64,000 nucleotides of DNA. It comes from Mayamaea pseudoterrestris. Taxonomy: Eukaryota. Within the stretch, counting starts at the first letter, position 1; every line of letters begins with the position of its first letter. The notes below the pieces were generated by a model that worked only from the letters and a program-made list of their open reading frames with translations, had not been told where the DNA came from and made no database searches. The position numbers were made by a program, and so were the translations under genes. The stretch lies in NCBI GenBank assembly GCA_027923505.1, contig BROI01000007.1, positions 372,001-436,000 of the forward strand, given 5' to 3'. This document shows, in pieces, positions 153-63,900 of this stretch.

Positions 153-159
153 ACCCAAT

Positions 160-470: not shown

Positions 471-715
471 GTAAACTAAGGGACCCGCCAGTGAAAAAAA
501 ACCTTGCAGCGCCCCTATGAGAGTGGGTTGTTGATAATTTTACTGCATCTGCCATATGCATCTACATTCAATACTAGCTGTCATCCAAAGAGTAGTCAAT
601 TTAAACACAACAACATCCATAAATCGAGCCCTCGGTCAGAATCAAAATAGTACATAAACTTGATATCTATATTTTAAAGCTTCTTTACAGCATCACAAAG
701 GTATTTCCACACGCT

Positions 716-37112: not shown

Positions 37113-37868
37113 ATGCTTGTATATGCGATGGTTGATGCAGACTGTACGAGACGAGTTGTACGATGGTTTGGCCTGAAAGAAACAAGGCAAAAGCATTCTA
37201 TAGGTATTAGAATTGAGTAACTTCACGAGCAAAAGCTAGTACACTCCGATTAGGTTGTAAACCGTTGCAGGTCTGGACCTTTCGAGCTCAGATGGCTGCA
37301 GACCCCTTTGCTTCAAAGCCATCGACACGTCGACATGTTGCTTGACAAATCATATCTCTGCTGGCTGAATCTTATTCTTAACACTCCAGCTGCTACTACT
37401 ACGATAGGTTGGGTTTCTTCATGGGTACCTGTATGAGCCAGTTTGCCAAGTGATTCGAAATGCAGGCCCAATCCCCTGCGTGACAATTGGTGCCCAGTCA
37501 GAGGGCTTCTGACACAGAATGGAACACTAAACTTATAGATTTTGTTGAAATTGTAGCGTGTAATTGCGTACAGTAATTGCATGAGCATAGAGCATAACCT
37601 TCTTGTAGTTTGCAAGCCGCCGCATAGCTAAACCTCTCTCTGTCGAAAGCGGCAAGCAAACGATCACACGACTCTTGTACAACTACGTGGACGCGACGCT
37701 CGCTTTGGCCCATAACTTACCAAACGGTTCGCAGATATGAAAGGATTGCGCGTACAGTACTTTTATATCAGATCACTTTGTCGTGCAAAAGGCTGAATCG
37801 AACAGCTAGGCCGTCAAGCCTCAACGGAACTGAAGTCCGTCCCCACCACCAGGCAGGTTCATTTGCAC

Positions 37869-42651: not shown

Positions 42652-42932
42652 CCCCAAACTATGGAATCATACCACTACAATGCCCTGTGCCCTGGCCACC
42701 CAACAACCCAATGAGTCAGGCAAAACATGTCCAGGGTGTGCCATTGACATGAGGATGGTCTGAAATGGTGCAAAACGGACTGCCTGGAGGCCTACACCAT
42801 GGAATGGTCTGCAGGCTGGGTGTGGCCAACACCCCAAATTATGGAATCATACCACTACAATGCCCCGTGCCCTGGCCACCCAACAACCCAATGAGTCAGG
42901 CAAAACATGTCCAGGGTGTGCCATTGACATGA
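42652..42932. repeat. Direct repeat with 180-bp period (~1.5 copies)
   Basis: ccccaaa.tatggaatcataccactacaatgccc...ccattgacatga at 42652 and 42832. Confidence 0.9.
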
Positions 42933-43752
42933 TCAGTCAAACAAGCCACTGCTGTCCTGCCATGGTTGTGGAAGGGTGCCATGACACAGTATAGTCTCCA
43001 TTTCATTGTTTTATGAACCATAAAATGATGGGCCTAGCCATTGTTCCTGCTATATGCCACTTGCTCTGGCACCCACAAGCACTTGGAATGATCCATTCTT
43101 GCGCAAAACCCAAACATATATGTAAGTGACTGTTCTACATGCCAATAATGGATTTCAGGCACCAAGCTCTGGCCAAGCTCTGGCCAATGCTCCAGAGACT
43201 GTGTGAAAACAAACACACCGGTTGACTGCCAAACACCAACCAGGCTCCCACCACTTGCTGAAGGAGGCTTCAGTGCATCATTGATCAGTCAAACAAGCCG
43301 ATGCTGTCCTGCCATGGTTGTGGAAGGGCGCCATGGATTGGTATAGTCTCCATTTCATTGTTTTATGAAACATAAAATGATGGGCCTAGCCATTGTTCCT
43401 GCTATATGCCACTTGCTCTGGCTCCCACAAGCACATGGAATGATCCATTCTTGCGCAGAAATCCAAAATATAAATGTTAGTGACTGTTCTACACGCCAAT
43501 AATGGATTTCAGGCACCTAGCTCTGGCCAAGCTCTAGCAAATGCTCCAGAGATTGTGTGAAAATAAACACACCAGTTGACTGCCAAACACCAACCAGGCT
43601 TCCACCACTTGCTGAAGGAGGCTTCAGTGCAACATTGATCAGTCAAACAAGCCACTGCTGGTGGAAGGGCGCCATGGATTGGTATAGTCTCCATATCATT
43701 TGTTTTATGAACCATAAAATGATGTTCCTGCTATATGCCACTTGCTCTGGCA
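42930..43752. repeat. Tandem repeat with ~353-bp period (~2.3 copies), CpG-poor
   Basis: tgatcagtcaaacaagcc at 42930, 43282 and 43636, with collinear downstream sequence. Confidence 0.9.
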
Positions 43753-43755
43753 CAC

Positions 43756-46700
43756 GTTGGCACCATTCTGGTGTATTTTAGGCACCTACCGGGCTTGCTG
43801 TAGGGGCGTTTGAATGTCACGGCATCTGCGGGCTGAGACTGGTGACAAGTTGTCACCAAATACATTGCCATCCCCTGAGACACCAGTCAAGCCTACCATC
43901 TTGTAGCGCAGCCTGAATAGGGATGTTGGCAATCTTCCGGTGTATTTTGGGCACCTACAGGGCTTGCTGTAGGGGTGTTTGAATGTCACGGCATCTGTGG
44001 GCTGAGACTGGTGACAAGTTGTCACCAAAGACATTGCCATCCCCTGAGATACCAGCCAAGCCTACCATCTTGTTGCGCAGCCTGAATAAGGATGTTGGCA
44101 CCATTCTGGTGTAAGTTAGGCACCTACAGGGCTTGCTGTAGGGGCATTTGAATGTCATGGCATCTGTGGGCTGAGACTGGTGACAAGTTGTCACCAAATA
44201 CATTGCCATCCCCTGAGACACCAGCCAAGCCTACCATCTTGTAGCGCAGCCTGATTAATGATGTTGGCACCATTCTGGTGTATTTTGGGCACCTACAGGG
44301 CTTGCTGTAGGGGCGTTTGAATGTCGCGGCATCTGCGGGCTGAGACCGGTGACAAGTTGTCACCAAATACATTGCCATCCCCTGAGACACCAGTCAAGCC
44401 AACCATCTTGTAGCGCAGCCTAAATAATGATGTTGGCACCATTCTGGTGTATTTTGGGCACCTACAGGGCTTGCTGTAGGGGCATTTGAATGTCAGGGCA
44501 TCTGCGGGCTGAGACTGGTGACAAGTTGTCACCAAATACATTGCCATCCCCTGAGACACCAGTCAAGCCTACCATCTTGTAGCGCAGCCTGAATAATGAT
44601 GTTGGCACCATTCTGGTGTATTTTGGTCACCTACAGGGCTTGCTGTAGGGGCATTTGAATGTCAGGGCATCTGCGGGCTGAGACTGGTGACAGGTTGTCA
44701 CCAAATACATTGCCATCCCCTGAGACACCAGCCAAGCCTACCATCTTCTAGCGCAGCCCGATTAATGATGTTGGCACCATTCTGGTGTATTTTGGGCACC
44801 AACAGGGCTTGCTGTAGGGGCATTTGAATGTTGCGGCATCTGCGGGCTGAGACTGGTGACAAGTTGTCACCAAATACATTGCCATCCCCTGAGACACCAG
44901 CCAAGCCTACCATCTTGTTGCGCAGCCTGAATAATGATGTTGGCACCATTCTGGTGTATTTTGGGCACCTACAGGGCTTGCTGTAGGGGCGTTTGAATGT
45001 CACGGCATCTGCGGGCTGAGACTGGTGACAAGTTGTCACCAAATACATTGCCATCCCCTGAGACACCAGGCAAGCCTATCATCTTGTAGCGCAGCCTGAA
45101 TAATGATGTTGGCACCATTCTGGTGTATTTTGGGCACCTACAGGGCTTGCTGTAGGGGCGTTTGAATGTCACGGCATCTGCGGGCTGAGACTGGTGACAA
45201 GTTGTCACCAAATACATTGCCATCCCCTGAGATACCAGCCAAGCCTACCATCGTGTAGCGCAGCCTGAATAATGATGTTGGCACCATTCTGGTGTATTTT
45301 GGGCACCCACAGGGCTTGCTGAAGGGGCGTTTGAATGTCACAGCATCTGCGGGCTGAGACTGGTGACAAGTTGTCACCAAATACATTGCCATCCCCTGAG
45401 ACACCAGTCAAGCCTACCATCTTGTAGCGCAGCCTGAATAATGATGTTGTCACCATTCTGGTGTATTTTGGGCACCTACAGGGCTTGCTGTAGGGGCGTT
45501 TGAATGTCACGGCATCTGCGACTGAGTCTGGTGACAAGTTGTCACCAAATACATTGCCATCCCCTGAGACATAAGCCAAGCCTACCTTCGTGTAGCGTAG
45601 CCTGCATAATGATGTTGGCACCATTCTGGTGTAATTTGGGCACCTGCAGGGCCTGCTGTAGGGGCGTTTGAATGTCGCGGCATCTGCGGGCTGTGACTGG
45701 TGACAAGTTGTCACCAAATACATTGCCATCCCCTGAGACACCAGGCAAGCCTACCAATCTGTCGCGCAGCCTGCAAAATGATGTTGGCACCATTCTGGTG
45801 TATTTGGGCACCTACAGGGCTTGCTGTAGGGGTGTTTGAATGTCACGGCATCTGCGGGCTGAGACTGGTGACAAGTTGTCACCAAATACATTGCCATCCC
45901 CTGAGACACCAGCCAAGCCTACCATCTTGTAGCGCAGCCTGAATAATGATGTTGGCACCATTGTGGTGTATTTTGGGCACCTACAGGGCTTGCTGTAGGG
46001 GTGTTTAAATGTCAGGGCATCTGCGGGCTGAGACTGGTGACAAGTTGTCACCAAAGACATTGCCATCCCCTGAGACACAAGCCAAGCCTACCATCGTGTA
46101 GCGCTGCCTGAATAATGATGTTGGCACCATTCTGGTGTATTTTGGGCACCTACAGGGCTTGCTGTAGGGGCGTTTGAATGTCACAGCATCTGCGGGCTGA
46201 GACTGGTGACAAGTTGTCACCAAATACATTGCCATCCCCTGAGACACCAGTCAAGCCATCCATCTTGTAGCGCAGCCTGAATAATGATGTTGGCACCATT
46301 CTGGTGTATTTTGGGCACCTACAGGGCTTGCTGTAGGGGCGTTTGAATGTCGCGGCATCTGTGGGCTGAGACTGGTGACAAGTTGTCACCAAATACATTG
46401 CCATCCCCTGAGATACCAGCCAAGCCTACCATCTTGTAGCGCAGCCTGATTAATGATGTTGACAACATTCGGGTGTATTTTGGGCACCTACAGGGCTTGC
46501 TGTAGGGGCGTTTGAATGTCGCGGCATCTGCTGGCTGAGACTGGTGACAAGTTGTCACCAAATACATTGCCATCCCCTGAGACACCAGTCAAGCCTACCA
46601 TCTTGTAGCACAGCCTGATTAATGATGTTGGCACCATTCTGGTGTATTTTGGGCACCTACAGGGCTTGCTGTAGGGGCGTTTGAATGTCGCGGCATCTGC

Positions 46701-49154
46701 GGGCTGAGACCGGTGACAAGTTGTCACCAAATACATTGCCATCCCCTGAGACACCAGTCAAGCCAACCATCTTGTAGCGCAGCCTAAATAATGATGTTGG
46801 CACCATTCTGGTGTATTTTGGGCACCTACAGGGCTTGCTGTAGGGGCATTTGAATGTCAGGGCATCTGCGGGCTGAGACTGGTGACAAGTTGTCACCAAA
46901 TACATTGCCATCCCCTGAGACACCAGTCAAGCCTACCATCTTGTAGCGCAGCCTGAATAATGATGTTGGCACCATTCTGGTGTATTTTGGTCACCTACAG
47001 GGCTTGCTGTAGGGGCATTTGAATGTCAGGGCATCTGCGGGCTGAGACTGGTGACAGGTTGTCACCAAATACATTGCCATCCCCTGAGACACCAGCCAAG
47101 CCTACCATCTTCTAGCGCAGCCCGATTAATGATGTTGGCACCATTCTGGTGTATTTTGGGCACCAACAGGGCTTGCTGTAGGGGCATTTGAATGTTGCGG
47201 CATCTGCGGGCTGAGACTGGTGACAAGTTGTCACCAAATACATTGCCATCCCCTGAGACACCAGCCAAGCCTACCATCTTGTTGCGCAGCCTGAATAATG
47301 ATGTTGGCACCATTCTGGTGTATTTTGGGCACCTACAGGGCTTGCTGTAGGGGCGTTTGAATGTCACGGCATCTGCGGGCTGAGACTGGTGACAAGTTGT
47401 CACCAAATACATTGCCATCCCCTGAGACACCAGGCAAGCCTATCATCTTGTAGCGCAGCCTGAATAATGATGTTGGCACCATTCTGGTGTATTTTGGGCA
47501 CCTACAGGGCTTGCTGTAGGGGCGTTTGAATGTCACGGCATCTGCGGGCTGAGACTGGTGACAAGTTGTCACCAAATACATTGCCATCCCCTGAGATACC
47601 AGCCAAGCCTACCATCGTGTAGCGCAGCCTGAATAATGATGTTGGCACCATTCTGGTGTATTTTGGGCACCCACAGGGCTTGCTGAAGGGGCGTTTGAAT
47701 GTCACAGCATCTGCGGGCTGAGACTGGTGACAAGTTGTCACCAAATACATTGCCATCCCCTGAGACACCAGTCAAGCCTACCATCTTGTAGCGCAGCCTG
47801 AATAATGATGTTGTCACCATTCTGGTGTATTTTGGGCACCTACAGGGCTTGCTGTAGGGGCGTTTGAATGTCACGGCATCTGCGACTGAGTCTGGTGACA
47901 AGTTGTCACCAAATACATTGCCATCCCCTGAGACATAAGCCAAGCCTACCTTCGTGTAGCGTAGCCTGCATAATGATGTTGGCACCATTCTGGTGTAATT
48001 TGGGCACCTGCAGGGCCTGCTGTAGGGGCGTTTGAATGTCGCGGCATCTGCGGGCTGTGACTGGTGACAAGTTGTCACCAAATACATTGCCATCCCCTGA
48101 GACACCAGGCAAGCCTACCAATCTGTCGCGCAGCCTGCAAAATGATGTTGGCACCATTCTGGTGTATTTGGGCACCTACAGGGCTTGCTGTAGGGGTGTT
48201 TGAATGTCACGGCATCTGCGGGCTGAGACTGGTGACAAGTTGTCACCAAATACATTGCCATCCCCTGAGACACCAGCCAAGCCTACCATCTTGTAGCGCA
48301 GCCTGAATAATGATGTTGGCACCATTGTGGTGTATTTTGGGCACCTACAGGGCTTGCTGTAGGGGTGTTTAAATGTCAGGGCATCTGCGGGCTGAGACTG
48401 GTGACAAGTTGTCACCAAAGACATTGCCATCCCCTGAGACACAAGCCAAGCCTACCATCGTGTAGCGCTGCCTGAATAATGATGTTGGCACCATTCTGGT
48501 GTATTTTGGGCACCTACAGGGCTTGCTGTAGGGGCGTTTGAATGTCACAGCATCTGCGGGCTGAGACTGGTGACAAGTTGTCACCAAATACATTGCCATC
48601 CCCTGAGACACCAGTCAAGCCATCCATCTTGTAGCGCAGCCTGAATAATGATGTTGGCACCATTCTGGTGTATTTTGGGCACCTACAGGGCTTGCTGTAG
48701 GGGCGTTTGAATGTCGCGGCATCTGTGGGCTGAGACTGGTGACAAGTTGTCACCAAATACATTGCCATCCCCTGAGATACCAGCCAAGCCTACCATCTTG
48801 TAGCGCAGCCTGATTAATGATGTTGACAACATTCGGGTGTATTTTGGGCACCTACAGGGCTTGCTGTAGGGGCGTTTGAATGTCGCGGCATCTGCTGGCT
48901 GAGACTGGTGACAAGTTGTCACCAAATACATTGCCATCCCCTGAGACACCAGTCAAGCCTACCATCTTGTAGCTCAGCCTGAATGAGACCATTCTGGTGT
49001 ATTGCACCTACAGGGCTTGCAGCATGTCACGGCATAAGACTGGACAGAAAATTGCCATCCCGAGACACCAGCCAAGCTACCATCTTGTAGCGCATTGATC
49101 ATTCGGTGTATTTTGGGCACCTACAGGGCCTGCTGTAGGGGCGTTTGAATGTCA
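43756..49154 (+). repeat. 169-bp satellite array, left block (~32 monomers)
   Basis: Head-to-tail monomer gttggcaccattctggtgtattttgggcacctacagggcttgctgtagggg...tggtgacaagttgtcacca...; repeated ORFs offset by 169. Confidence 0.99.
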
Positions 49155-49544
49155 TATCTTCACCGGGCCCATACCTGTTGGTAGGCGTCCTATCGAGAGA
49201 TCTGACTGAGGCTGCTGGTTCGAGATCCGAAGGAATCAGGCGAAGGAAAAAAAAAAATTCACTGGTTGCACGGGTTTGTCACGAACGAACGATGGGGAGT
49301 CGCGGACCCTGGGGAGTGCACAAAGATGCGCCGAGCCCGAAACGCCGCAGGAAAAACTGAAAAGTGACATTCCCCCGCGAGACGAAAATGCCAGCTGAAA
49401 CGGAAGACGAGTTAGCACTATGACGCGCAAAGCTAGGGGAGTAGCAGGTTGCACACGAAAAACAGCAACCAGAGCGATACCTTTACTTGTCATAGTGCAT
49501 GGTGCCTTGTATGCAGCATATAGTACACTAGCAGACGGAAAAGT

Positions 49545-49603
49545 AGCAGCGTGTTTAGAGGTGATATAGCCGGTTATCCTTGGTTCGATTCCGAGGTGCG
49601 CTA
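49545..49603 (+). ncRNA. tRNA-like module (59 nt, non-canonical), copy 1
   Basis: Acceptor AGC(A)GCG/TGCGCT plus discriminator A; T-arm CCTTGG-TTCGATT-CCGAGG with perfect B box GGTTCGATTCC; short GATA/TATC arm; no proper D arm; followed by cTTTT. Confidence 0.65.
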
Positions 49604-50014
49604 CTTTTAACGGCATAGTGATACTACTTTCTGTTGCATACCTGCTATGGTAGCGTCCCTATCGAGAGATCTGGACTGAGGCTGCTGGTTCGAGTTGCGA
49701 TCGAATCAAGCGAAGAAAAAGCAAAAATTCACTGGTTGCACGGGTTTGTCACGAACGAACGATGGGGAGTCGCGGACCCTGGGGAGTGCACAAAGATGCG
49801 CCGAGCCCGAAACGCCGCAGGAAAAACTGAAAAGTGACATTCCCCCGCGAGACGAAAATGCCAGCTGAAACGGAAGACGAGTTAGCACTATGACGCGCAA
49901 AGCTAGGGGAGTAGCAGGTTGCACACGAAAAACAGCAACCAGAGCGATACCTTTACTTGTCATAGTGCATGGTGCCTTGTATGCAGCATATAGTACACTA
50001 GCAGACGGAAAAGT

Positions 50015-50073
50015 AGCAGCGTGTTTAGAGGTGATATAGCCGGTTATCCTTGGTTCGATTCCGAGGTGCGCTA
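50015..50073 (+). ncRNA. tRNA-like module (59 nt), copy 2
   Basis: Identical to 49545-49603. Confidence 0.65.
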
Positions 50074-50117
50074 CTTTTAACGGCATAGTGATACTACTTT
50101 CTGTTGCATACCTGCTA

Positions 50118-53100
50118 GGGCTGAGACTGGTGACAAGTTGTCACCAAATACATTGCCATCCCCTGAGACACCAGTCAAGCCAACTATCTTGTAGCGCAGC
50201 CTGAATAATGATGTTGGCACCATTCTGATGTATTTTGGGCACCTACAGGGCTTGCTGTAGGGGCGTTTGAATGTCAGGGCATCTGCGGGCTGAGACTGGT
50301 GACAAGTAGTCACCAAATACATTGCCATCCCCTGAGACACCAGCCAAGCCTACCATCTTGTAGCGCAGCCTGATTAATGATGTTGGCACCATTCTGGTGT
50401 ATTTTGGGCACCTACAGGGCTTGCTGTAGGGGCGTTTGAATGTCACGGCATCTGCGGGCTGAGACTGGTGACAAGTTGTCACCAAATACATTGCCATCCC
50501 CTGAGACACCAGCCAAGCCTACCATCTTGTAGCGCAGCCTGATTAATGATGTTGGCACCATTCTGGTGTATTTTGGGCACCTACAGGGCTTGCTGTAGGG
50601 GCGTTTGAATGTCACGGCATCTGCGGGCTGAGACTGGTGACAAGTTGTCACCAAATACATTGCCATCCCCTGAGACACCAGCCAAGCCTACCATCTTGTA
50701 GCGCAGCCTGATTAATGATGTTGGCACCATTCTGGTGTATTTTGGGCACCTACAGGGCTTGCTGTAGGGGCGTTTGAATGTCACGGCATCTGTGGGCTGA
50801 GACTGGTGACAAGTTGTCACCAAATACATTGCCATCCCCTGAGACACCAGCCAAGCCTATCATCTTGTAGCGCAGCCTGAATAATGATGTTGGCACCATT
50901 CTGGTGTAATTTGGGCACCTACAGGGCTTGCTGTAGGGGCTTTGGAATGTCACGGCATCTGCAGGCTGAGACTGGTGACAAGTTGTCACCAAATACATTG
51001 CCATCCCTTGCGATACCAGCCAAGCCTACCATCTTGTAGACCAGCATGAATAATGATGTTGGCACCATTGTGGTGTATTTTGGGCACCTACAGGGCTTGC
51101 TGTAGGGGTGTTTGAATGTCACGGCATCTGTGGGCTGAGACTGGTGACAAGTTGTCACCAAATAAATACATTGCCATCCCCTGAGACACCAGCCAAGCCT
51201 ACCATCTTGTAGCGCAGCCTGAATAATGATGTTGGCACCATTCTGGTGTAATTTGGGCACCTACAGGGCTTGCTGTAGGGGCGTTTGAATGTCACGGCAT
51301 CTGCGGGCTGAGACTGGTGACAAGTTGTCACCAAATACATTGCCATCCCCTGAGATACCAGCCAAGCCTACCATCTTGTAGCGCAGCCTGCATAATGATG
51401 TTGGCACCATTCTGGTGTATTTTGGGCACCTACAGGGCTTGCTGTAGGGGCGTTTGAATGTCATGGCATCTGCGGGCTGAGACTGGTGACAAGTTGTCAC
51501 CAAATACATTGCCATCCCCTGAGACACCAGCCAAGCCTACCATCTTGTAGCGCAGCCTGATTAATGATGTTGGCACCATTCTGGTGTATTTTGGGCACCC
51601 ACAGGGCTTGCTGTAGGGGCGTTTGAATGTCACGGCATCTGCGGGCTGAGACTGGTGACAAGTTGTCACCAAATACATTGCCATCCCCTGAGATACCAGC
51701 CAAGCCTACCATCTTGTAGCGCAGCCTGATTAATGATGTTGACAACATTTGGGTGTATTTTGGGCACCTACAGGGCTTGCTGTAGGGGCGTTTGAATGTC
51801 ACGGCATCTGCGGGCTGAGACTGGTGACAAGTTGTCACCCAATACATTCCCATCCCCTGAGACACCAGCCAAGCCTATCATCTTGTCGCGCAGCCTGAAT
51901 AATGATGTTGGCACCATTCTGGTGTAATTTGGGCACCTACAGGGCTTGCTGTAGGGGCGTTTGAATGTCACGGCATCTGTGGGCTGAGACTGGTGACAAG
52001 TTGTCACCAAATACATTGCCATCCCCTGAGATACAAGCCAAGCCTACCATCCTGTAACGCAGCCTGCATAATGATGTTGGCACCATTCTGGTGTATTTTG
52101 GGCACCTACAGGGCTTGCTGTAGGGGTGTTTGAATGTCACAGCATCTGCGAGCTTAGATTGGTGACAAGTTGTCACCAAATACATTGCCATCCCCTGAGA
52201 TACCAGCCAAGCCTACCATCTTGTAGCGCAGCCTGCATAATGATGTTGGCACCATTCTGGTGTATTTTGGGCACCTACAGGGCTTGCTGTAGGGGCATTT
52301 GAATGTCACGGCATCTGCGGGCTGAGACTGGTGACAAGTTGTCACCAAATACATTGCCATCCCCTGAGACACCAGCCAAGCCTACCATCTTGTAGCGCAG
52401 CCTGCATAAGGATGTTGGCACCATTCTGGTGTATGTTAGGCACCTACAGGTCTTGCTGTAGGGGCATTTGAATGTCGCGGCATCTGCGGGCTGAGACTGG
52501 TGACAAGTTGTCACCAAATACATTGCCATCCCCTGAGACACCAGGCAAGCCTACCATCGTGTAGCGTAGCCTGCATAATGATGTTGGCACCATTGTGGTG
52601 TATTTTGGGCACCTACAGGGCTTGCTGTAGGGGCGTTTGAATGTCACGGCATCTGCGGGCTGAGATTGGTGACAAGTTGTCACCAAATACATTGCCATCC
52701 CCTGAGATACCAGCCAAGCCTACCATCTTGTCGCGCAGCCTGATCAATGATGTTGGCACCATTCTGGTGTATTTTGGGCACCTACAGGGCTTGCTGTAGG
52801 GGCGTTGGAATGTCACGGCATCTGCGGGCTGAGATAGGTGACAAGTTGTCACCAAATACATTGCCATTTCTTGAGATACCAGCCAAGCCTACCATCGTGT
52901 AGCGCAGCCTGAATAATGATGTTGGCACCATTCTGGTGTATTTTGGGCACCTACAGGGCTTGCTGTAGGGGCGTTTGAATGTCGCGGCATCTGCGGGCTG
53001 AGACTGGTGACAAGTTGTCACCAAATACATTGCCATCCCCTGAGACACCAGTCAAGCCTACCATCTTGTAGCGCAGCCTGAATAGGGATGTTGGCACCAT

Positions 53101-55148
53101 TCTGGTGTATTTTGAGCACCTACAGGGCTTGTTGTAGGGGCGTTTGAATGTCACGGCATCTGCGGGCTGAGATTGGTGACAAGTTTGTCACCAAATACAT
53201 TGCCATCCCCTGAGATACCAGCCAAGCCTACCATCGTGTAGCGCAGCCTGAATAATGATGTTGGCACCATTCTGGTGTATTTTGGGCACCCACAGGGCTT
53301 GCTGTAGGGGCGTTTGAATGTCACGGCATCTGCGGGCTGAGACTGGTGACAAGTTGTCACCAAATACATTGCCATCCCCTGAGACACCAGCCAAGCCTAT
53401 CATCTTGTAGCGCAGCCCTGAATAATGATGCCGGCACCATTCTGGTGTATCTTGGGCACCTACAGGGCTTGCTGTAGGGGTGTTTGAATGTCACGGCATC
53501 TGCGGGCTTAGATTGGTGACAAGTTGTCACCAAATACATTGCCATCCCCTGCCATCCCCTGAAACACCAGCCAAGACTACCATCTTGTAGACCAGCATGA
53601 ATAATGATGTTGGCACCATTCTGGTGTAATTTGGGCACCTACAGGGCTTGCTGTAGGGGTGTTTCAATGTCACGGCATCTGCGGGCTGAGATTGGTGACA
53701 AGTTGTCACCAAATACATTGCCATCCCCTGAGATACCAGCCAAGCCTACCATCGTGTAGCGCTGCCTGAATAATGATGTTGGCACCATTCTGGTGTATTT
53801 TGGGCACCCACAGGGCTTGCTGTAGGGGCGTTTGAATGTCACGGCATCTGCGGGCTGAGACTGGTGACAAGTTGTCACCAAATACATTGCCATCCCCTGC
53901 GATACAAGCCAACCCTACCATCTTGTAGCGCAGCCTGATTTATGATGTTGGCAACATTTGGGTGTATTTTGGGCACCTACAGGGCTTGCTGTAGGGGTGT
54001 TTGAATGTCACGGCATCTGCGGGCTGAGACTGGTGACAAGTTGTCACTAAATACATTGCCATCCCCTGAGACACCAGCCAAGCCTATCATCTTGTAGCAC
54101 AGCCCTGAATAATGATGCCGGCACCATTCTGGTGTATCTTGGGCACCTACAGGGCTTGCTGTAGGGGTGTTTGAATGTCACGGCATCTGCGGGCTTAGAT
54201 TGGTGACAAGTTGTCACCAAATACATTGCCATCCCCTGAGATACAAGCCAAGCCTACCATTTTGTAACGCAGCCTGCATAATGATGTTGGCACCATTCTG
54301 GTGTATTTTGGGCACCTACAGGGCTTGCTGTAGGGGTGTTTGAATGTCACAGCATCTGCGAGCTTAGATTGGTGACAAGTTGTCACCAAATACATTGCCA
54401 TCCCCTGAGATACCAGCCAAGCCTACCATCTTGTAGCGCAGCCTGCATAATGATGTTGGCACCATTCTGGTGTATTTTGGGCACCTACAGGGCTTGCTGT
54501 AGGGGCATTTGAATGTCATGGCATCTGCGGGCTAAGACTGGTGACAAGTTGTCACCAAATACATTGCCATCCCCTGAGACACCAGCCAAGCCTACCATCT
54601 TGTAGCGCAGCCTGCATAAGGATGTTGGCACCATTATGGTGTATGTTAGGCACCTACAGGTCTTGCTGTAGGGGCATATGAATGTTGCGGCATCTGCGGG
54701 CTGAGACTGGTGACAAGTTGTCACCAAATACATTGCCATCCCCTGAGACACCAGGCAAGCCTACCATCGTGTAGCGTAGCCTGAATAATGATGTTGGCTA
54801 AATTCTGGTGTATTTTGGGCACCTACAGGGCTTGCTGTAGGGGCGTTTGAATGTCACGGCATCTGCGGGCTGAGATTGGTGACAAGTTGTCACCAAATAC
54901 ATTGCCATCCCCTGAGATACCAGCCAAGCCTACCATCTTGTCGCGCAGCCTGATCAATGATGTTGGCACCATTCTGGTGTATTTTGGGCACCTACAGGGC
55001 TTGCTGTAGGGGCGTTGGAATGTCACGGCATCTGCGGGCTGAGATAGGTGACAAGTTGTCACCAAATACATTGCCATTTCTTGAGATACCAGCCAAGCCT
55101 ACCATCGTGTAGCGCAGCCTGAATAATGATGTTGGCACCATTCTGGTG
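50118..55148 (+). repeat. 169-bp satellite array, right block (~30 monomers)
   Basis: Same monomer and orientation as the left block; ends at ...gttggcaccattctggtg. Confidence 0.99.
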
Positions 55149-56585: not shown

Positions 56586-57492
56586 ATGAGAGTCCCTTCA
56601 GAACATTTTGTTGACATTGGCAATGGAATAATGTCGCGTCATGGTGTCACTGGCCAGACTGACCGACGCTTCCGCTCAACATTTGGCACCACACCAGCAA
56701 TTTGCAGCATTCTTTGGGACAAACTAGATCCTGAAAGGTTTATTCACAAGAGAGCTGAACCAAAACATTTGTTATGGGGCTTGATGCTCATGAAACTCTA
56801 TCTCCCTGAGCGTGCAATAGTTTCCTTGGCTGGTGGAGTTGACGAGAAGACCTTTTCAAAGTGGAGCTGGCTTTTCATTGATCAAATCTCATTCTTGGAG
56901 ACACAAGTGGTGAGTTTGGCTGGTGAAGCTCCAAGTTGCTACTTGTTTCTTTCATTTCTCATGCTGTTATTGCCATGCTGATCCACAGATTCGTTGGGAA
57001 AACCGCCTTCAAAATGACATTGGAAATGATTGTCTGGTTTCAGTGGATGGCACTGATTTCCGCATTCAACAGTTTCAACCATTTTGGAAAGGGTGGTACT
57101 CCCATAAATTCAATGGGCCAGGTCTGCGCTGGGAAGTTGCACTCTGCATTCGTACAGGTCATATTGTGTGGCTTTCTGGTCCTTTTCCTTGTGGTGAATG
57201 GCCCGACATCAAGATTTTTCGTCAAGCTTTGAAGGGAATGCTGGGCCAAGGTGAACGTGTGGAGGCAGATGATGGATATGCTGGAGAATGTCCTCGGTTT
57301 GTGGTGGCACCAATTCGGTTTGCTGAAAGTGCTGCGCGTGTTGCCCTGACCAAGCGGGTGCGGGCAAGGCATGAAACCGTGAACAAGCGTTTTAAGCAAT
57401 GGGGCTGCTTGAAGCAAGTCTTTCGGCATGCGCCATCAAAGCAATCTTCAATGTTCCGCTCTGTTGCCGTAGTCACTCAGAGTCGAGATTGA
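56586..57492 (+). CDS. DDE_Tnp_4 (Harbinger/ISL2EU-like) transposase, 3'-disrupted; intron 56910-56988
   Basis: RRFRSTFG, PKHLLWGLMLMKLY, VSVDGTDFRI, YSHKFNGPGLRWEV, W.D..IF, EADDGY.G, RARHETVNKRFKQWG.L. Confidence 0.9.
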
Positions 57493-57493
57493 C

Positions 57494-57848
57494 TGTGTCC
57501 GGGTTCTGTCTGTCCGGTACTTACGTACTTGTCTGTCCGGTACTCCCGTCGATTTGCATTGGATCGTTGCCATTCCACCATGGCGCTCTGCACGCTCCGT
57601 TCTTCATGCTTTCATGCTAACAAGCTCCAACAGCTATAACAACGGCATTATTGTCTGTTCACCAGACGTGGGTTCTTCTTTGAGATTTATCATTACAATG
57701 ATCCTGGATGTTCCTGTCTTTCGAGTCGAATGTCGAGCCTTGTGCTCACAATCTGAAACTAGTGATTGCATAAAACACTATAAGCTTGCTGTTGCAAAAA
57801 CAAACATCTTCTTCATCGTTTAACCTACTACTTGCGAAGTAGTCTTCA
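57494..57848 (+). repeat. Putative 5' LTR (~355 bp; start could be 57490)
   Basis: Starts TG where the transposase frame is lost and ends CA immediately before the PBS; partner LTR not visible. Confidence 0.65.
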
Positions 57849-57850
57849 CT

Positions 57851-57862
57851 GGTTACGAGCCC
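57851..57862 (+). promoter_or_regulatory. Primer binding site, half-tRNAiMet (hemivirus) type
   Basis: GGTTACGAGCCC resembles the Drosophila copia PBS GGTTATGGGCCC, which is complementary to the iMet anticodon arm. Confidence 0.7.
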
Positions 57863-57969
57863 AAGTTACAACCTCAAACGTTAAACGCTTCTTTTGCTCA
57901 ATCCAACAACGGGACGCCGTCGTGAGCAATTCAAACTACCAACGAACGAAGACTTCTACAACTACTACA

Positions 57970-60900
57970 ATGGGACGATCGCCCAACAAGAAAAGCAAAG
58001 AGGCCAAGTCCTCTGCCGCCGCCGCAGCTGCCGAAGCTGAGGCCGCCGCCAACGTCGACGCTGCAGCAAACCAAGACGACAACTACGACGACAAGGAGCC
58101 CGAGCCAGATGCTCCTCCTTTATCCGCTCGCAACTCGAGCAAGGCCTTTACTCCAATCAAACCAGTCCATGGTGGACTCTTCACTACGCCCAAGGAAATT
58201 ATTCCCTACACTGGCGGCAAACCCGAGCGCAGTTTCGCCGAGTTTCCCCAAACGACCGACATACCAATGGAAGGCTGCCGCCGTCCAAGCGACCCCAAGG
58301 ATTGGAAGAGTCGCACCAAAGGGCTTGATACTAAACTCTCCACAACAACAAACCTGTTTACGTGGGAGAAGGAATTTTGGCGACACCTCGTTCGCCACGG
58401 ATTGGACACCACCCCCTACATCGCGAAAAACGAGACCACCCTCGCTCCTATTGTCACTCAGTGTGGCAGATTCCCTACAGTCGAAGCAGTCCAAGCTGCT
58501 GTAGATGAAGTTTCCCCCAAATGGGATCCTTATGATCGTCGCAATGATGGCGACGCGGTCGAATTCCTGTTGAACTCTCTCAGTCAAGAGATTCGACAGC
58601 GCTTGGAGGTGTACACTCCAACAGACAAGCCCGAGTGCTTCGCCGTTACTTACTGGCGTGTGATTGCTATGGTACAGCAACACAATCATGCTCTTCATCA
58701 GCGCCTCGAGAGGGAGGCGTTGGCCATCATGCCGCATCAGTTTCCTGGTCAAAACATCCACCAGTATTGCGCCAGCGTCCACAAGCTCATCTCGCAGCTT
58801 CAGAACGCCCAGGTTTACAACCATCAAACAACAGAGCAGCTCCTCCGCAACATTCGAACAGCAGGAGGAACCTACAGTACAGACAATCCAGCCGCCACGG
58901 AATTCATGTTGAGTCTCTACGCATTCGAGCAAGCGTACGGGACGGCGGTGACGGAAAGCGCTGAAATGGGAGCAGCAGAACGAGACATCTACATGCTCAA
59001 GGCCAAAGCAGCTCCTCAAGACTTGTTCAAAGCAGCGGAGACCAAGTATGATGCTCTTATAGCTGCAAATGCTTGGTGGCCAGCCCGCCGCCCTCAGGAC
59101 CGTCGCGCCCCGGCCGCACACGTCCTCCAAGTCAACACGAACCACTCGAACGCCTCTCGCTCTGACGGAGCTCAAGACAGGATCTGTTTCAACTGTGGAA
59201 AGAAAGGCCACATCTCGCCTCAGTGCACTGAACCGAAAAGGGACGGTAGCAATCGCTCAGCTCCAAACTCGCCTAGAAACATGCCCAGTCACAGTCGCAC
59301 CTCGAGCGGTCGGAATTCCTCTCGTCGTGGACCAAGTACTGGATCCTACGGGCCGCGAAGCACAGGCGCCAATCAAAACGGCCGCCCTCGCAACAACAAC
59401 AACAACAATCGTCGATCCACAAGCAATGGATCCTCTTCTGTCCCCAAGCTCTGGTGTGGCCATTGCAACCGCTGGGGGACTCATGACACGGCTGCTCATA
59501 ACAACGAGCGAACCAAAGTCCCAAATCCATCGCAGCCGCCGACTTTGAACCCGCGGGCGAATCTCGCCAATGTGTTTGACTCGCATGACTGGGTGATGCC
59601 TAGCGCCTATTACGCAAAGCTTCCATCATTCAATGAGCGCTGGATTCCACCCGCAACAGTTGAGGCTCTTCAATCGGTTTGTTTGAACACCAGCGAGGAA
59701 GAGCAAAACCTCGCCGCCTGCGTTCTGCCTCCGGATCTTTCAATGTCGCCATGGCATCTCGACTTGGAGGATGGAGGCGACTCCTTCAGTTCTTTCCTCA
59801 AGGAAGACGCTTATCCATCGCCAGTATACGTCAAGGAAGCTCATTTGTCTCCTCGGTATGAGCTTTCGCCTCGCCGTTTGTTTGACGAGGCAAGTGCTGC
59901 GGTTGATACGCGCCCAGTTAGCGACAGTCTCCATGACTACTGGTTTGAAGGGATGTCTTGCCCTGGCGCTCCTTCTCCAGTGCCTTCCACTCCGCCTTTA
60001 TCACCTAATCAACCAGATTTAAGGCTTCCGCGCATGCTTGATTTGATCGAGGACATTGATGGCAAAATCAAGTTCCATTTCGAGTGCTTTGGCTCTGGCC
60101 CCTGGCCGCTCAATCCTCCTCGCTCGATTCTGGTCAAACGCCTTCGCGCCATCAAGGGCGCAGGCTCTAAAGGCAGTCGCAGCAATCAAAGCAACCACAG
60201 CTCTGCTGGTAACAATAGCGGAGGCAGTGACGACGACAGCAGCCGCAGCAGCAGCAACAGCAGCAGCAGTGTCGACTCAAGTGACACAAGCAGTCTGTCG
60301 AATGATATCAGTCTGGATAATGTCAGTACAGCATCTCCGCCTCGCAAGAAGCCATTTGCTAGCGGTAAACAAGCTGCTCTGGCCGCTGCTCTGTTCATGG
60401 CAAAGGGAGCAGACGCTTTCGGCGCTCCTGCGACAAGCTCTAGTCCTACCATGACTCAAGTCTTTCGCATGTTGCCGTCATTCTTGCAGCCAACGCCTGC
60501 TCAAAGCGCTGCTGCAGTCTTTCCTTTCAATCTCCTCCCATCTTTCCTTTGGTTTGAAGTGGGGGAGTCGGTGGTATTCGCCTTTCTCCTTTGGTCGCTG
60601 ACGCTGGTATTGGCGTGTGCCGCCACTTGGTATTACATGAAGGCTCGCCGCCTTTCGCGCCGCCTTCAACACCACTTGCGCCATTGCCATTGCTACTTGG
60701 TTTTGCATGCCAATGGGCGCTTTGGTCGTCCTGTAGACTCACCTGCTGTTGATTGCGCGTGGCGCTCTGCTCGACGCGCCATTGTTTGGCGAGTCTTTCA
60801 CCTCATTGCTTGGTTTAATACGCTCTGGCTTCGCTGGTTGCGTCGCCAAGTTGCCTACTGGACTGCCATTGGGGGAGAGACTACTCATTATCGCCGTGTT

Positions 60901-63900
60901 GGTGGTTCAAGATTTTGTGTTGCTCGCCCTGATGGTCCTCAACCCGTGCCCGTTCGCCAACCTGCTCGCCGACGCCGTCGCCGTCGCCGCAACAAGAAGG
61001 CAAAAGCCAAGGCTGAACAAGCAGCTCCTTCTTCTCCTTCTTCTCCTTTGGATCGCATTCATGGCATCCTCAAGATCAAAGCTCCGCTGTCAACCCTGAC
61101 GCCTCGCTCGCACGTGCACTTGCGCGAGATGGACAATTTCCGTGGCCATCTGCTCGCAAACGATGCCTTTACCGTCTCGCAAGTTGATGAAGACATCAAC
61201 AAGGTACATCAGTATCTAATGGGCTTTCTGGATATGGCTCCTTGCCTTCAAACAGGCGCTCGCATTCCTCATCGCTTGAGTCGCCTTCGCCATTCCAAGT
61301 ACGAGGTGAATCACGAACTGAGTCCCGATTCGCCCATTTCGCCCATTCAAGGCTACCTTTCCTCCAACACGACAACGCCTAGTCCTCAACGCTCTCGCAC
61401 ATCTTCTCCACCAAGGATGCGCTCTGCTAAAGTTAAAGTGGAAGCGTTGGGTCGGCAACAGTTCCAGTCGCCGCGGCGTTGCAAGAATGGCCAGCCCAGC
61501 ATGCAACCTAGCGAGTTGCCAATGCCCGTCATGCCGACTTCAACCACTCCAGTTGCTAGTCAAGTGGAACCAGTCGTTCCTAGTCCTGTTATCTCTGGAA
61601 TCATGGATCCTTATGTCTTTCTGTTGACTCTAACGCCACAAGAGACTGCAGCTCTGCCTGCTTGGATTCGATCAACAATGCGCGCTATCCGCCGCAACGG
61701 CCACGCATCCTCTTTTGGAGACGACAAATCCTCCAAGGAACGAGTCTTTCCAGTCATTTGGGATACTGGCGCAAGTATATCTATCTCATACGAGCGCTCT
61801 GACTTTGTCGGTCCCATTGAACCGTCTCCAAACAACGATCGCGTCAGTGGTCTTACAGATGGAGCCAAGATTGAGGGGAGAGGCTGTGTCGCCTGGACTT
61901 TCCTTGATAATGGAGGCATGCTCAGAACATTAAAGCTGCCTGCCTACTACATTCCGGCTGCTACAGTCCGCTTGCTAAGTATAAGCAGCGTTCTGCAACA
62001 ACACTATGAGGAATTCATCTATGGCGACGAACGAGCCATCTTCCTGAGTGGATCCGTTTCAACCACTCACTCCGACGGATCCATAACCAACAATGGAATA
62101 GAAGTTCTGGTGGATCCTGCATCTAACTTGCCGACCGGGTATGCCTACGATACCTCGTCTCCTTCTGCATCTGCCTATCGGGCAAGCGAGTTGTCGGCGC
62201 CGCCTGGATCGCCACCAGGCCCCGAGCCAGCTCCAAATGCGTCAAATGCACCTCCAGGCAATACTGGAAGGCATCAAAATGGCAATCTCGGTGGATCTTG
62301 TCAAACAAGGGCGCATGGTTTCTTGCCTGGGTCCGCACAAGGCCGAGGTCCCAGCTCGAATTCACGTCAATTGCCAAGTGGCCCGCAAGTCTACTCGGTT
62401 GCTATGCCTTCTCCATTGCCGCCTCCGGTGGTAGCTTCCAATAATGCTAATATAACGGAAGCAGAGAAGGAACTTTTGCGGTGGCATTACCGTCTTGGCC
62501 ATCTCGCCAAGGCGAGGATCCAGTTCCTGATGAAGGGAGGCATCCTAGCTCAATCAGAGGGACAACGGCGCCTACACGCCGCAAGCTCGAGGCTGGTTAA
62601 TCCTCCTCTTTGCGCTGCCTGCCAGTATGCTAAACAAAGGCTGCGTTCTGCTCCCGGGAACAAGTCAACTGCGGTCAAGGATCGAGTTGGAGCGTTGCGC
62701 CGCAACGACGTGTTTCCAGGGCAACAAGTTAGCGTTGACCATTTCATCTGCTCAACCAAAGGCAGACTCTTCTCCTCTCGAGGCAAGACTCAAGAGGCTG
62801 ATCTTTACTGCGGTGGTTGCATCTTTGTGGATCACGCCTCTGGCTACGTCTTCATCTACTTCCAGCGGCATTTAACCACCGACGAGACCCTTGCCGCAAA
62901 GGAGGCATTCGAGCTATCCTGCCGCGACTATGGAGTCATTCCTCAAGAGTATCTTTCTGACAATGGACGTGCCTTTGCGTCTAAAGCATTTGCTCAGCAT
63001 CTTGCAGTGTTCTCCCAGATCAACAAGTTTGCCGGCGTCGGCGCCCACCATCACAATGGGATCGCCGAGCGCTCCATCCAAACGATCATGGCAATCACTC
63101 GCGCTATGATGCTACACGCCTCTATACACTGGCCTGAGCTATCTGATCTATCGCTCTGGCCAATGGCGTGCCAATATGCCGCGTTCCTGTGGAACAAGAT
63201 GCCCGACCTGCACTCAGGGATCAGTCCACACGACTTGTTTACGCGCACTCGATGGCCTCACTCGCGCTTCCATGACCTTCATGTATGGGGATGCCCAGTC
63301 TATATACTGGAGAAGCGTCTCTCTGATGGTCAGAAGCTGCCGCGCTGGTCGCCTCGCTCCAAGCGTTGCGTCTTTGTCGGTATGAGTGACGCGCACGCAA
63401 GCTCCGTTCCTCTGGTCCTCAATCCAGAAACAGGAGCCATTACACCTCAGTTTCATGTGGTCTTTGACGACTACTTTAGCACGGTATCATCTGATCCTGG
63501 CAGCTTGCCAGATTTCGAGACGGACGAGTGGCGCAAACTCTTTGGCGACAGCTCCTATCAGTATATCCCCATTGACGAGGATGGAGCCGACCAAGAGCCT
63601 TCAACCAGCGCGCCTCCTATTCCTGAAGCTGCTATTCAGCAAAAGGATCGAGTGGAAGCCGCTTTTGAAACCAATCGTCCATCCCATCCATTGCCTGGCG
63701 AGCCGGCCCCAAGCGAGCCAACCGGCGACCCATTGCATGATCCCGCCGACCCGACCGACGATGGTTCTGGTCTCGCAAGGGCGCAGGATGACAGTTCTCC
63801 GCCTGCAAGGGCGCCAAGTCCAACTTTTGATACCACCGCTTCGGCCAATTCTGCAGACTCGTCTTCAGCTAGCGCACCTACACACCATAACGCTGTGACA

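Follow-up and report, generated by a model that had tools for sequence, protein, structure and literature searches.

A 470-bp tandem repeat interrupts a satellite array in the diatom Mayamaea pseudoterrestris and carries a tRNA-like stretch shortly upstream of a candidate primer-binding site (PBS). This raises the question of what kind of element the repeat is and whether it supplies the primer for its own reverse transcription. A preliminary description proposed an undescribed family of non-autonomous retroelements, the RNA of which would provide its own primer and borrow a reverse transcriptase. Here, we analysed the locus within a window of 64,000 nt (contig BROI01000007.1, positions 372,001 to 436,000), and all coordinates below are positions in this window. 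The features of the insertion all lie on the + strand, and the surrounding satellite arrays were assigned no strand. We consider it likely that the locus holds a tiny protein-less LTR retrotransposon (TRIM) with a tRNA-derived segment in its LTR, present as a tandem array in a diatom satellite and primed by the host initiator tRNA.

Architecture of the tandem insertion

Tandem Repeats Finder (TRF) called an array at 49170–50117 with a period of 470, 2.0 copies and 97% matches, flanked on both sides by a 169-bp satellite (TRF arrays 43756–48984 and 50118–55148). An antisense open frame of 144 aa matched no Pfam family, and proteins of 79–252 residues included none related to it. The 470-bp tandem non-coding unit of the preliminary description was borne out. 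When the unit was compared with the window by blastn, only the two array copies were recovered, the 5 other matches being 12–22 nt long.

By alignment, the array consists, in order, of a 9-nt remnant of a first LTR (49170–49178, catacctgt, where the full LTRs end in catacctgcta), internal domain 1 (49179–49257), LTR copy A (49258–49647), internal domain 2 (49648–49727) and LTR copy B (49728–50117). The two LTR copies, each of 390 nt (ttcactgg...catacctgcta), are letter-for-letter identical (0 of 390 columns differ), whereas 13 of the 80 columns differ between internal domains 1 and 2 (Fisher p = 4e-11 against the 0 of 390 LTR columns). All 13 differences between the units are confined to this domain of PBS, linker and purine tract, and the limits of the identical block coincide exactly with the end of the purine tract and with the base before the TGG of the PBS. 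In internal domain 2, the PBS TGGTAGCGTCCC(T) (49648–49660) directly adjoins the LTR end and is followed by a linker and the purine tract GAAGAAAAAGCAAAAA (49712–49727). In internal domain 1, an altered PBS, TGGTAGGCGTCCT (49179–49191), precedes a linker with a small hairpin and the purine tract GAAGGAAAAAAAAAAA (49242–49257); of the PBS ascribed earlier to each unit, that of unit 2 stands and that of unit 1 is altered. Both polypurine tracts end on the base before an LTR (15 of 16 purines in GAAGAAAAAGCAAAAA and 16 of 16 in GAAGGAAAAAAAAAAA), and LTR copy A lies between a purine tract and the PBS.

This is the layout of a TRIM, with two identical 390-nt direct repeats around an 80-nt non-coding domain and a full element length of about 860 bp. 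The LTR termini are TT...TA instead of the usual TG...CA, which counts against an LTR element, and the combination of a 4–5 bp target-site duplication with TG...CA ends by which TRIMs are defined was not seen in this one insertion, too few to judge. The identity of the LTRs beside a 16% difference (13/80) between the internal domains is likewise unexplained by an LTR element. Taken together, the anatomy supports the unit being a non-coding, non-autonomous retroelement with a PBS.

On the left, the satellite array (43756–49154) ends with ...gaatgtca at 49154, and its units are identical to the consensus at 162–165 of 169 positions. Small deletions are abundant at 48975–49105 within this left array. 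On the right, the array (50118–55148) resumes at gggctgagactgg, with 164–168 of 169 positions identical to the consensus. The insertion has a length of two units plus 9 nt. Its left end is irregular: a 15-nt junction filler, tatcttcaccgggcc (49155–49169), is not a satellite variant and cannot be clearly assigned to the LTR, and no other match to it in the window (at most 3 mismatches) falls in satellite. GGGC within the filler (49165–49168) recurs directly after the insertion and possibly represents a 4-bp target duplication; since the first LTR is almost absent, a clean target-site duplication is unreadable. The right junction (50117/50118) reads ...catacctgcta/gggctgag, so the last base of the insertion is the last base of LTR copy B, just before the position at which the next TGG would start. 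This agrees with the junction reported earlier.

The tRNA-derived segment and its likeness to the PBS

The tRNA-derived segment occupies 49548–49603 in LTR copy A (the earlier module was drawn at 49545–49603) and 50018–50073 in LTR copy B. It contains a T arm (cttgg-ttcgatt-ccgag, 49579–49595), the B box GGTTCGATTCC (49582–49592) and a 3' acceptor strand, GTGCGCT, with discriminator A (49596–49603). Directly after it lies TTTT (49605–49608, second copy 50075–50078), a possible RNA polymerase III terminator and the sole run of at least 4 T on the + strand of the unit. B box and T arm are perfect, and the B-box pattern occurs in the window at 49582 and 50052 only. The box A region is a partial match, as judged by eye, and the 5' half of the segment is degenerate. 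ARAGORN with default settings found no tRNA at the segment, and the Rfam tRNA model gave no match there at E ≤ 10, even on 121 nt. An 83-nt cloverleaf obtained with ARAGORN at a relaxed threshold was rejected as chance level, with 45 hits in the window against 32–43 per shuffle in 5 shuffles. Folding energies showed no gain over shuffles (z –1.6, –0.3 and –0.1). The description as tRNA-like thus holds for the T arm, B box, 3' acceptor strand, discriminator A and TTTT, and fails for the rest. Because tRNA models do not recognise the segment, its promoter function is putative, and in annotation it should not be taken for a tRNA gene.

The segment ends with ...CCGAGGTGCGCTA at 49603, and 44 nt separate it from the PBS TGGTAGCGTCCCT (49648–49660), as had been noted. 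The earlier pairing scheme also proved correct: across the 13 PBS bases, AGGUGCGCUA-CCA forms 12 pairs, of which 11 are Watson–Crick and 1 is G-U, and leaves 1 mismatch. At the 3' end of the module, 8 of 10 genomic bases equal the PBS complement AGGGACGCTA, and the pairing runs for 8 contiguous bp, followed by the wobble and then the mismatch. Among all 10-mers of the window, 36 of 127,982 (both strands, the two module ends included) lie within 2 mismatches of the PBS complement. The likeness is therefore real and exceeds chance, at about 3 in 10,000. In Helenus TRIMs, according to the text of Kojima 2024 (PMC10886601) drawn on here, complementarity between the tRNA-like 3' end and the element's own PBS was sought and not found; it is thus not a general by-product of placing a tRNA in an LTR. 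Host priming alone leaves the 8/10 likeness unexplained, and it is the unexpected point of this locus, for which descent from the primer tRNA, mimicry and real self-priming are candidates.

The candidate primer tRNA and related copies

The PBS pairs at 12 of 12 positions with the 3' end GGGACGCTA plus CCA of an initiator tRNA-Met of eukaryote type, encoded on the public viral contig L074. This tRNA-Met(cat), at 250–321 of the contig, scores 52.1 bits with the Rfam tRNA model and has the initiator features A1:U72, a GGG/CCC anticodon stem and the T loop GATCGAAAC; the search pattern by which it was found required the acceptor match, not initiator identity. With an initiator-type pattern, 7 matches in genome contigs included no tRNA, and 2 matches in viral contigs included 1 tRNA. 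When metagenomes were scanned for tRNAs of any kind with this acceptor, 65 matches were returned, 2 of which were tRNAs by ARAGORN and neither a eukaryote-type initiator: L025 is a tRNA-Met in a cluster of 7 tRNAs, and L026 was called tRNA-Pro. The only tRNA in the window (SeC) does not match the PBS. Literature text searches with the PBS string and its complement returned only papers that were unrelated, as judged by title and abstract; PMC2806351 held no PBS information, and the supplement of PMC4247016 held nothing on point.

We compared contigs of sequencing runs X1, X2, X3 and X5 over 49060–49720. A contig in X2 and X3 fits 49623–49658, that is, the LTR end and the PBS, and is unlike the unit before and behind. 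The block shared with this other element extends over 49623–49677, from 25 nt before the LTR end through the PBS to some 17 nt beyond it; upstream of 49623 the sequences are unrelated, and downstream they agree at 14 of the first 17 nt and then diverge. The consensus behind the fitted part, TGTCGCGAGATCTGGAG, resembles TATCGAGAGATCTGGAC. A diverged copy in X1 and X5, with 14–15 differences, fits from 49522 or 49501 to 49648 and stops there although the contigs are longer. In this copy, the match between module and PBS is down to 7/10, the TTTT is lost and no compensating change is visible. In X1–X3 a 500-letter contig joins the end of the unit back to its start (a cycle of 470). These runs also lack cover over 49175–49243, and such contig holes prove nothing.

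In further searches, a 20-mer spanning LTR end and PBS had 0 matches in the metagenome scan, a module 22-mer was absent from both the genome contigs and the viral contigs (0 matches in each), and 8 matches of a PBS-plus-linker pattern in viral contigs all had unrelated flanks. The window also contains a Copia-like polyprotein, at a distance of 7.8 kb, with a 5' region to which the U5 end of the unit showed no likeness (local score 23, shuffle mean 21). The repeats of the host diatom are described as mainly Ty1-Copia LTR retrotransposons in the part of PMC9724779 used here.

Given the 12/12 match with the L074 initiator and the existence of an element that shares the PBS but has unlike sequence upstream, host priming is the simplest reading. 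To judge from these matches, the primer is probably an ordinary initiator tRNA borrowed from the host, a matching tRNA being known from viral contig L074. A better-matching initiator had been named in advance as evidence against self-priming; the L074 tRNA does pair better than the module, but it comes from a viral contig and is not a tRNA of the host. The case against any need for a self-made primer is therefore strong but not final. The right end just before TGG is the ordinary U5 end of an LTR.

Competing explanations and the favoured model

In retrotransposition, the plus strand copies the 3' end of the primer, so that the PBS is re-inherited from the primer in each cycle. This bears on the proposal that the LTR segment is itself the primer, as a polymerase III transcript trimmed by RNase P and RNase Z, tailed with CCA and annealed to the PBS of its own element for a borrowed reverse transcriptase. 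The pairing in the exact CCA-completed register, the low chance rate of comparable 10-mers, the perfect B box and the TTTT just after the discriminator base all favour the proposal, as does the lack of such complementarity in Helenus as far as Kojima's cited text goes. However, the module offers 8 contiguous bp, a wobble and a mismatch where the initiator tRNA offers 12/12, and none of the three PBS copies seen, in units 1 and 2 and in the X2/X3 element, has module-type bases. The X2/X3 element has the same PBS with unlike sequence upstream of 49623, the diverged copy lost the TTTT and part of the match without visible compensation, and tRNA models do not recognise the segment. We thus regard self-priming as unlikely, and would say the same of a diatom Helenus-like TRIM with an LTR tRNA mimic that acts either as its own primer or as a stand-in for the primer tRNA in packaging. 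If self-priming were true, the element would bring its own primer and borrow only enzymes, the step that Kojima sought and did not find. The likeness could instead reflect pairing in cis, in which the U5-proximal tRNA-derived 3' strand pairs with the PBS within one RNA molecule and gates primer annealing or serves as a Tf1-like self-primer cut by RNase H. The minimum-energy fold of 49522–49700 does pair GGUGCGCUA with the PBS, and in Tf1-type elements a PBS-complementary part of the element's own RNA acts as the primer, as the cited part of PMC7175516 describes. This is nonetheless very improbable: the fold is no stabler than shuffles (z –0.08, 94 of 200 at least as good), Tf1-type priming uses the first bases of the transcript and the stretch here sits 44 nt ahead of the PBS, and the TGG at the PBS start suits a CCA end and not the genomic CTT that follows the module. 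Mimicry, whereby the segment imitates the acceptor and T arm of the primer tRNA and the non-coding RNA enters a partner's particles through primer-selecting protein contacts, would fit the two ends of the 56-nt segment (AGCGT... and ...CGCTA), which resemble a tRNA-Met-type acceptor. Alignment z values were 3.9 with the L074 initiator and 4.6 with the L025 tRNA-Met (0 of 300 shuffles as good) against 1.7 with tRNA-Asn, and three changed acceptor pairs still pair as G-U. Both tRNAs had been picked by their acceptor end, however, so the likeness is partly built in, and the T arm matches the initiator and tRNA-Asn about equally (16/26 and 15/26); we consider mimicry highly improbable.

Other alternatives concern the nature of the unit itself. 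A local 470-bp tandem duplication that holds a decayed tRNA gene and a PBS-like string by chance would be immobile; two copies only in the window and an irregular left end agree with it, and the closed 500-letter contig of X1–X3 is expected of any tandem repeat. We consider it quite improbable, since the satellite is interrupted with a sharp right edge, the identity pattern tracks the borders of PBS and purine tract, and parts of the element recur in other contexts in other runs. In a retrozyme-like cycle, circular or multimeric RNA would be reverse transcribed by rolling circle from the PBS, and the multimeric cDNA would have its right end beside the PBS and its left end where synthesis stopped. 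An insertion of two units plus 9 nt that ends exactly beside the PBS position, and the closed 470 cycle in X1–X3, would fit, but that cycle is equally expected from a tandem array. Furthermore, no hammerhead or other ribozyme family was found at E ≤ 10 in 48900–50400 or 49505–49625, and a single circular template would not yield 13 of 80 internal differences beside an identical remainder, and we consider this origin highly improbable. A tRNA-derived SINE was rejected, as the insertion ends at the PBS boundary and not at the tRNA-like head or an A-rich tract.

Under the favoured reading, that of a host-primed TRIM, the element would be transcribed, perhaps by polymerase III from a tRNA-type promoter, with some transcripts passing the TTTT, and with such read-through the tRNA-derived segment would serve as the terminal repeat R. 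The RNA would be packaged by a Ty1/Copia-type partner with the same U5 end and PBS block, the minus strand would be primed by host initiator tRNA-Met annealed to TGGTAGCGTCCC, and the plus strand by the purine tract. This priming scheme would account for the last base of the element lying just before TGG, at the U5 end of the LTR. The tandem form may have arisen by LTR–LTR recombination or template switching, the origins proposed for Cassandra arrays in the cited part of PMC7215508. What the preliminary description held of a non-autonomous retroelement with a PBS, a tRNA-derived segment, a tandem arrangement and a right end defined by the PBS is thus supported.

The LTR design would be of the Helenus/TRIMp3 type, the tRNA counterpart of Cassandra. 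TRIMs with tRNA-derived LTR sequence were already described (Helenus/TRIMp3; Kojima 2024, PMC10886601), and tandem arrays are known for one Helenus family, LTR-11_DR (PMC10886601), and for Cassandra (PMC7215508), so the claim of an undescribed family was not supported, as far as the cited parts of these papers show. By the same portions of Kojima 2024, Helenus TRIMs have a tRNA-like LTR segment, a PBS, a polypurine tract and a PBS region similar to that of autonomous elements. Like them, the diatom unit is a small LTR element that encodes no protein, and each of its LTRs holds a tRNA-derived segment in which the B box is conserved. The PBS immediately follows an LTR, and a purine tract immediately precedes the next one; the tandem arrangement has its parallel in LTR-11_DR, and the PBS region is similar to that of another element, which in Helenus is autonomous. 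It differs in its diatom host, since Table 1 of that paper lists only fungi, animals and Selaginella (supplementary family lists may differ), and in its LTR of 390 bp against 323 bp for the longest one named there, although its full length is within the published range. Helenus is also defined by box A (TRGCY...YGG) and box B (GGTTC) in the cited text, whereas the A-box half is degenerate here, and the tRNA-like 3' end here resembles the complement of its own PBS. Further marks of Helenus are transcription by polymerase III, at which the TTTT after the segment and the lack of other T runs in the unit are the only hints in the present sequence, and numerous dispersed copies with solo LTRs, where runs X1, X2, X3 and X5 yielded the unit, one diverged partial copy and one related element. 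Cassandra likewise has a small-RNA gene piece in the LTR shortly upstream of the PBS, with a polymerase III promoter, a terminator and an initiator-tRNA PBS, and forms LTR-internal-LTR-internal-LTR arrays, commonly with three LTRs; its piece is 5S rRNA, it is confined to vascular plants in the part of PMC7215508 cited, and it has no sequence likeness to the present element. Tf1/sushi elements share the stretch of own RNA upstream of the PBS and complementary to it, but are autonomous and lack tRNA shape and CCA in the cited account (PMC7175516). Retrozymes are likewise non-autonomous and LTR-type, and they combine an LTR-borne structured RNA module with a PBS and a polypurine tract, as the cited part of PMC5680766 describes, but their defining hammerhead ribozyme is absent here.

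A search of the full-text literature found no report of a diatom or stramenopile TRIM with a small-RNA gene piece. If the favoured reading holds, the locus is a compact example of such an element within a satellite array, and TRIMs with a small-RNA gene piece (Helenus/TRIMp3) would extend to diatoms and thus to the stramenopiles.

Organization and setting of the 470-bp element

Tandem Repeats Finder reported a 470-bp period at 49170-50117 (2.0 copies, 97% matches), and a blastn comparison of the unit with the window returned the two copies and 5 additional matches of just 12-22 nt. When the two units were aligned, 49258-49647 and 49728-50117 were identical letter for letter (0 of 390 columns differed), whereas 49179-49257 and 49648-49727 differed at 13 of 80 columns (16%, Fisher p 4e-11). 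Each identical block starts directly behind a purine tract (GAAGGAAAAAAAAAAA or GAAGAAAAAGCAAAAA) and ends directly before TGG. Because the identity is bounded by the purine tract on one side and by TGG on the other, the 390-nt block is an LTR as defined by the mechanism of reverse transcription, and the variable stretch of ~80 nt is a minimal internal domain comprising primer-binding site (PBS), linker and polypurine tract. In order, the insertion consists of a 15-nt filler (49155-49169), a first LTR of which the last 9 nt alone remain (49170-49178), internal domain 1 (49179-49257) with the altered PBS TGGTAGGCGTCCT, an LTR copy (49258-49647), internal domain 2 (49648-49727) with the PBS TGGTAGCGTCCCT at 49648-49660, and a further LTR copy (49728-50117) forming the right end. 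The LTRs, with TT...TA termini, are identical though the internal domains diverge, and the first LTR is almost entirely lost.

At the right junction (50117/50118), ...catacctgcta is followed by gggctgag. Here, at the base before the next TGG would start, the U5 of the last LTR ends; the same is expected of any tRNA-primed LTR element, so no special primer is needed to explain it. The 470-bp period, module end (49603), PBS position and junction given in the preliminary description were all reproduced, and its view of a tandem, non-autonomous retroelement agrees with this anatomy: no ORF accounts for the unit, and a 144-aa antisense open frame had no Pfam family and no relative. By eye, each linker could fold into a small hairpin, with letters that differ between the units (TTCG/CGAA at 49217-49236 in unit 1, TTCGA/TCGAA at 49687-49706 in unit 2), where 4 of the 13 internal-domain differences fall.

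The window is eukaryotic and gene-dense, and its minus-strand allantoicase ORF (15350-16873) is 99% identical to a protein named by NCBI from Mayamaea pseudoterrestris. According to the available text of the genome report, the strain is diploid, with a genome of 27.2 Mb by k-mer estimate and repeats, chiefly Ty1-Copia LTR retrotransposons, accounting for 19% or more of the assembly (PMC9724779). At 49155-50117 the insertion breaks a 169-bp satellite array that extends over 11.4 kb (43756-55148, 93-94% matches). A 354-bp repeat (2.3 copies, 42930-43724) lies immediately left of this array, and, by eye, motifs such as GGCTGAGACTGGT are common to the satellite and a repeat of 168 bp at the start of the window (157-472). 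Numerous small deletions occur left of the insertion at 48975-49105 (70 gap positions versus 4 mismatches over 48899-49155), which could be real damage or assembly error; the final 50 nt before the left junction are clean. Farther right, a plus-strand open frame (57784-64000) continues past the window's edge after 2072 codons or more; it encodes a Copia-like polyprotein starting near 57967, with gag-pre-integrase and retroviral SH3-like domains and, by eye, a CCHC knuckle and a DTGA protease motif. The TGG-led string TGGTTACGAGCCC at 57852, ~115 nt upstream of the polyprotein, may be the PBS of this Copia-like element and is unlike that of the 470-bp element; the Copia-like element is immediately preceded by a plus-strand DDE transposase fragment (56914-57492; Pfam DDE_Tnp_1, E 5.9e-05).

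A tRNA-like segment resembling the PBS complement

The tRNA-like segment of the LTR (49545-49603) ends at 49603 in ...CCTTGGTTCGATTCCGAGGTGCGCTA; the CTTTT behind it holds the unit's sole run of at least four T. Its T arm is perfect and carries the B-box pattern GGTTCGANNCC, whose sole occurrences in the 64 kb are at 49582 and 50052, and discriminator A is present together with the 3' strand of an acceptor. ARAGORN called no tRNA at the segment under default settings, the Rfam tRNA model had no match at E<=10 over 1.5 kb or over 121 nt, and folding energies of the region were ordinary (z -1.6, -0.3 and -0.1). An 83-nt cloverleaf at 49522-49604, obtained with ARAGORN at an 80% threshold, was given no weight because shuffled sequences yielded similar numbers (45 matches in the window, 32-43 in each of 5 shuffles). 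Judged by its sequence, the segment is a putative tRNA-derived 3' half joined to a degenerate 5' half, so that the tRNA-like character previously described holds for the former and not for the latter.

As had been noticed earlier, the 3' end of this segment, once CCA is added, pairs with 12 of the 13 PBS bases (11 Watson-Crick, one G-U, one mismatch). Eight of its 10 genomic end bases equal the PBS complement AGGGACGCTA. Since just 36 of the 127,982 10-mers in the window match as closely, both module ends included, the likeness is real, in the register completed by CCA.

Probable primer and course of replication

The window's sole ARAGORN tRNA, a minus-strand selenocysteine gene (37782-37868), does not match the PBS. 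Screening metagenomes for tRNAs carrying this acceptor yielded 65 matches; 2 were tRNAs, and neither was a eukaryote-type initiator. Seven tRNA genes share 663 nt (106-768) of one 2.7-kb metagenome contig (L025); among them is a tRNA-Met(cat) that has A1:U72 and agrees with the PBS complement at all of its last 10 bases. With the initiator T-loop motif, 7 matches and no tRNAs were found in prokaryote genomes and 2 matches in viral contigs. One of the latter, at 250-321 of L074, is a tRNA-Met(cat) (Rfam tRNA model score 52.1 bits). Its 5' end is AGCGTCC, and its A1:U72 pair, GGG/CCC anticodon stem and GATCGAAAC T loop are eukaryotic initiator hallmarks. Its 3' end plus CCA pairs 12/12 with TGGTAGCGTCCC, where the scan pattern required the acceptor match and not a complete initiator tRNA. 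L074 is a 70.6-kb IMG/VR contig on which this gene and a tRNA-Asn lie 15 nt apart (250-409) between AT-rich flanks. An initiator tRNA of the kind that the preliminary description had named as evidence against its own reading thus exists, though the one found belongs to a viral contig rather than to the host genome.

Parts of the element's stretch were present in thirteen sequencing runs, none recorded as RNA, and contigs from four of them (X1, X2, X3 and X5) were compared with 49060-49720. In X1-X3, a 500-letter contig joins the unit to itself (joint 49716 to 49247), as either a tandem array or a circle would. X2 and X3 also have a contig that shares with the unit 49623-49658 alone, comprising the PBS and the final 25 nt of the LTR. 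The upstream part of this contig (...TTCGTCGTCGTTTCCTTCGTAGTTGTCGTG) is unrelated, and in X3 its downstream part (TGTCGCGAGATCTGGAG...) is identical to the unit's TATCGAGAGATCTGGAC at 14 of 17 positions. A second element thus has the U5 end and PBS in common with the unit but differs from it upstream of 49623. In X1 and X5, a diverged copy (14-15 differences) fits 49522/49501-49648, its alignment stopping at 49648, which is the LTR boundary again; it has lost the TTTT, and its match to the PBS complement is down to 7/10.

The likeliest course, and one we consider fairly probable, is that RNA, which may arise at the tRNA-type promoter and run on through the TTTT so that the segment acts as R, would be packaged and copied by a Copia-type partner with the same U5-PBS block. 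The minus strand would be primed by the host initiator tRNA and the plus strand by the purine tract. True self-priming, in which the module primes on its own PBS as first proposed, would draw on the 12/13 pairing, and we regard it as improbable. During plus-strand synthesis the primer's 3' end is copied, so the PBS is re-inherited from the primer, yet none of the three PBS copies seen is of the module type, which counts against habitual self-priming. Together with the ordinary U5 end and the 12/12 initiator pairing, this leaves the claim of an own primer unsupported.

Besides self-priming, candidate causes of the likeness itself are that the segment descends from the primer tRNA or that it mimics that tRNA. 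For mimicry, alignment z values were 3.9 and 4.6 against two tRNA-Met molecules and 1.7 against tRNA-Asn, the former being partly built in, as both tRNA-Met molecules were chosen by acceptor match. By analogy with Tf1, a model for cis pairing with the own PBS in the available text of PMC7175516, the tRNA-derived 3' end may also be a candidate for pairing in cis with the PBS, but the fold lends this no support (z -0.08).

Relation to known TRIM families

In the available text of Kojima (2024, PMC10886601), Helenus elements are terminal-repeat retrotransposons in miniature, or TRIMs, of 311-1263 bp from fungi, animals and Selaginella, with a PBS, a PPT and LTRs containing tRNA-derived sequence bearing boxes A and B, and are placed with Cassandra and Ajax as TRIMp3. 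Fungal families there resemble Copia elements at the PBS region, some use the initiator tRNA 3' end, and tandem arrays are reported for one family (PMC10886601). Cassandra arrays of the form LTR-internal-LTR-internal-LTR, often with three LTRs, are ascribed to LTR recombination or template switching in the portion of PMC7215508 available. By its sequence, the present element would fit this Helenus/Cassandra kind, and the suggestion of an undescribed family is not upheld. No stramenopile appears in Table 1 of the Helenus paper (PMC10886601), and among the literature matches listed, no diatom report of a Helenus/TRIMp3-like element was found from 2023 on, nor one of such an element under diatom LTR retrotransposons with a tRNA primer-binding site.

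Compared with Helenus, the present element occurs in another host lineage, a diatom, has a longer LTR and a weak A-box half, and shows the 3'-end/PBS likeness; complementarity between the LTR tRNA-like sequence and the own PBS was sought in Helenus and not found, according to the available text (PMC10886601). The original observation was thus largely right and its interpretation half right, and the likeness between segment 3' end and PBS is the one feature of the element that deserves a test at the bench.
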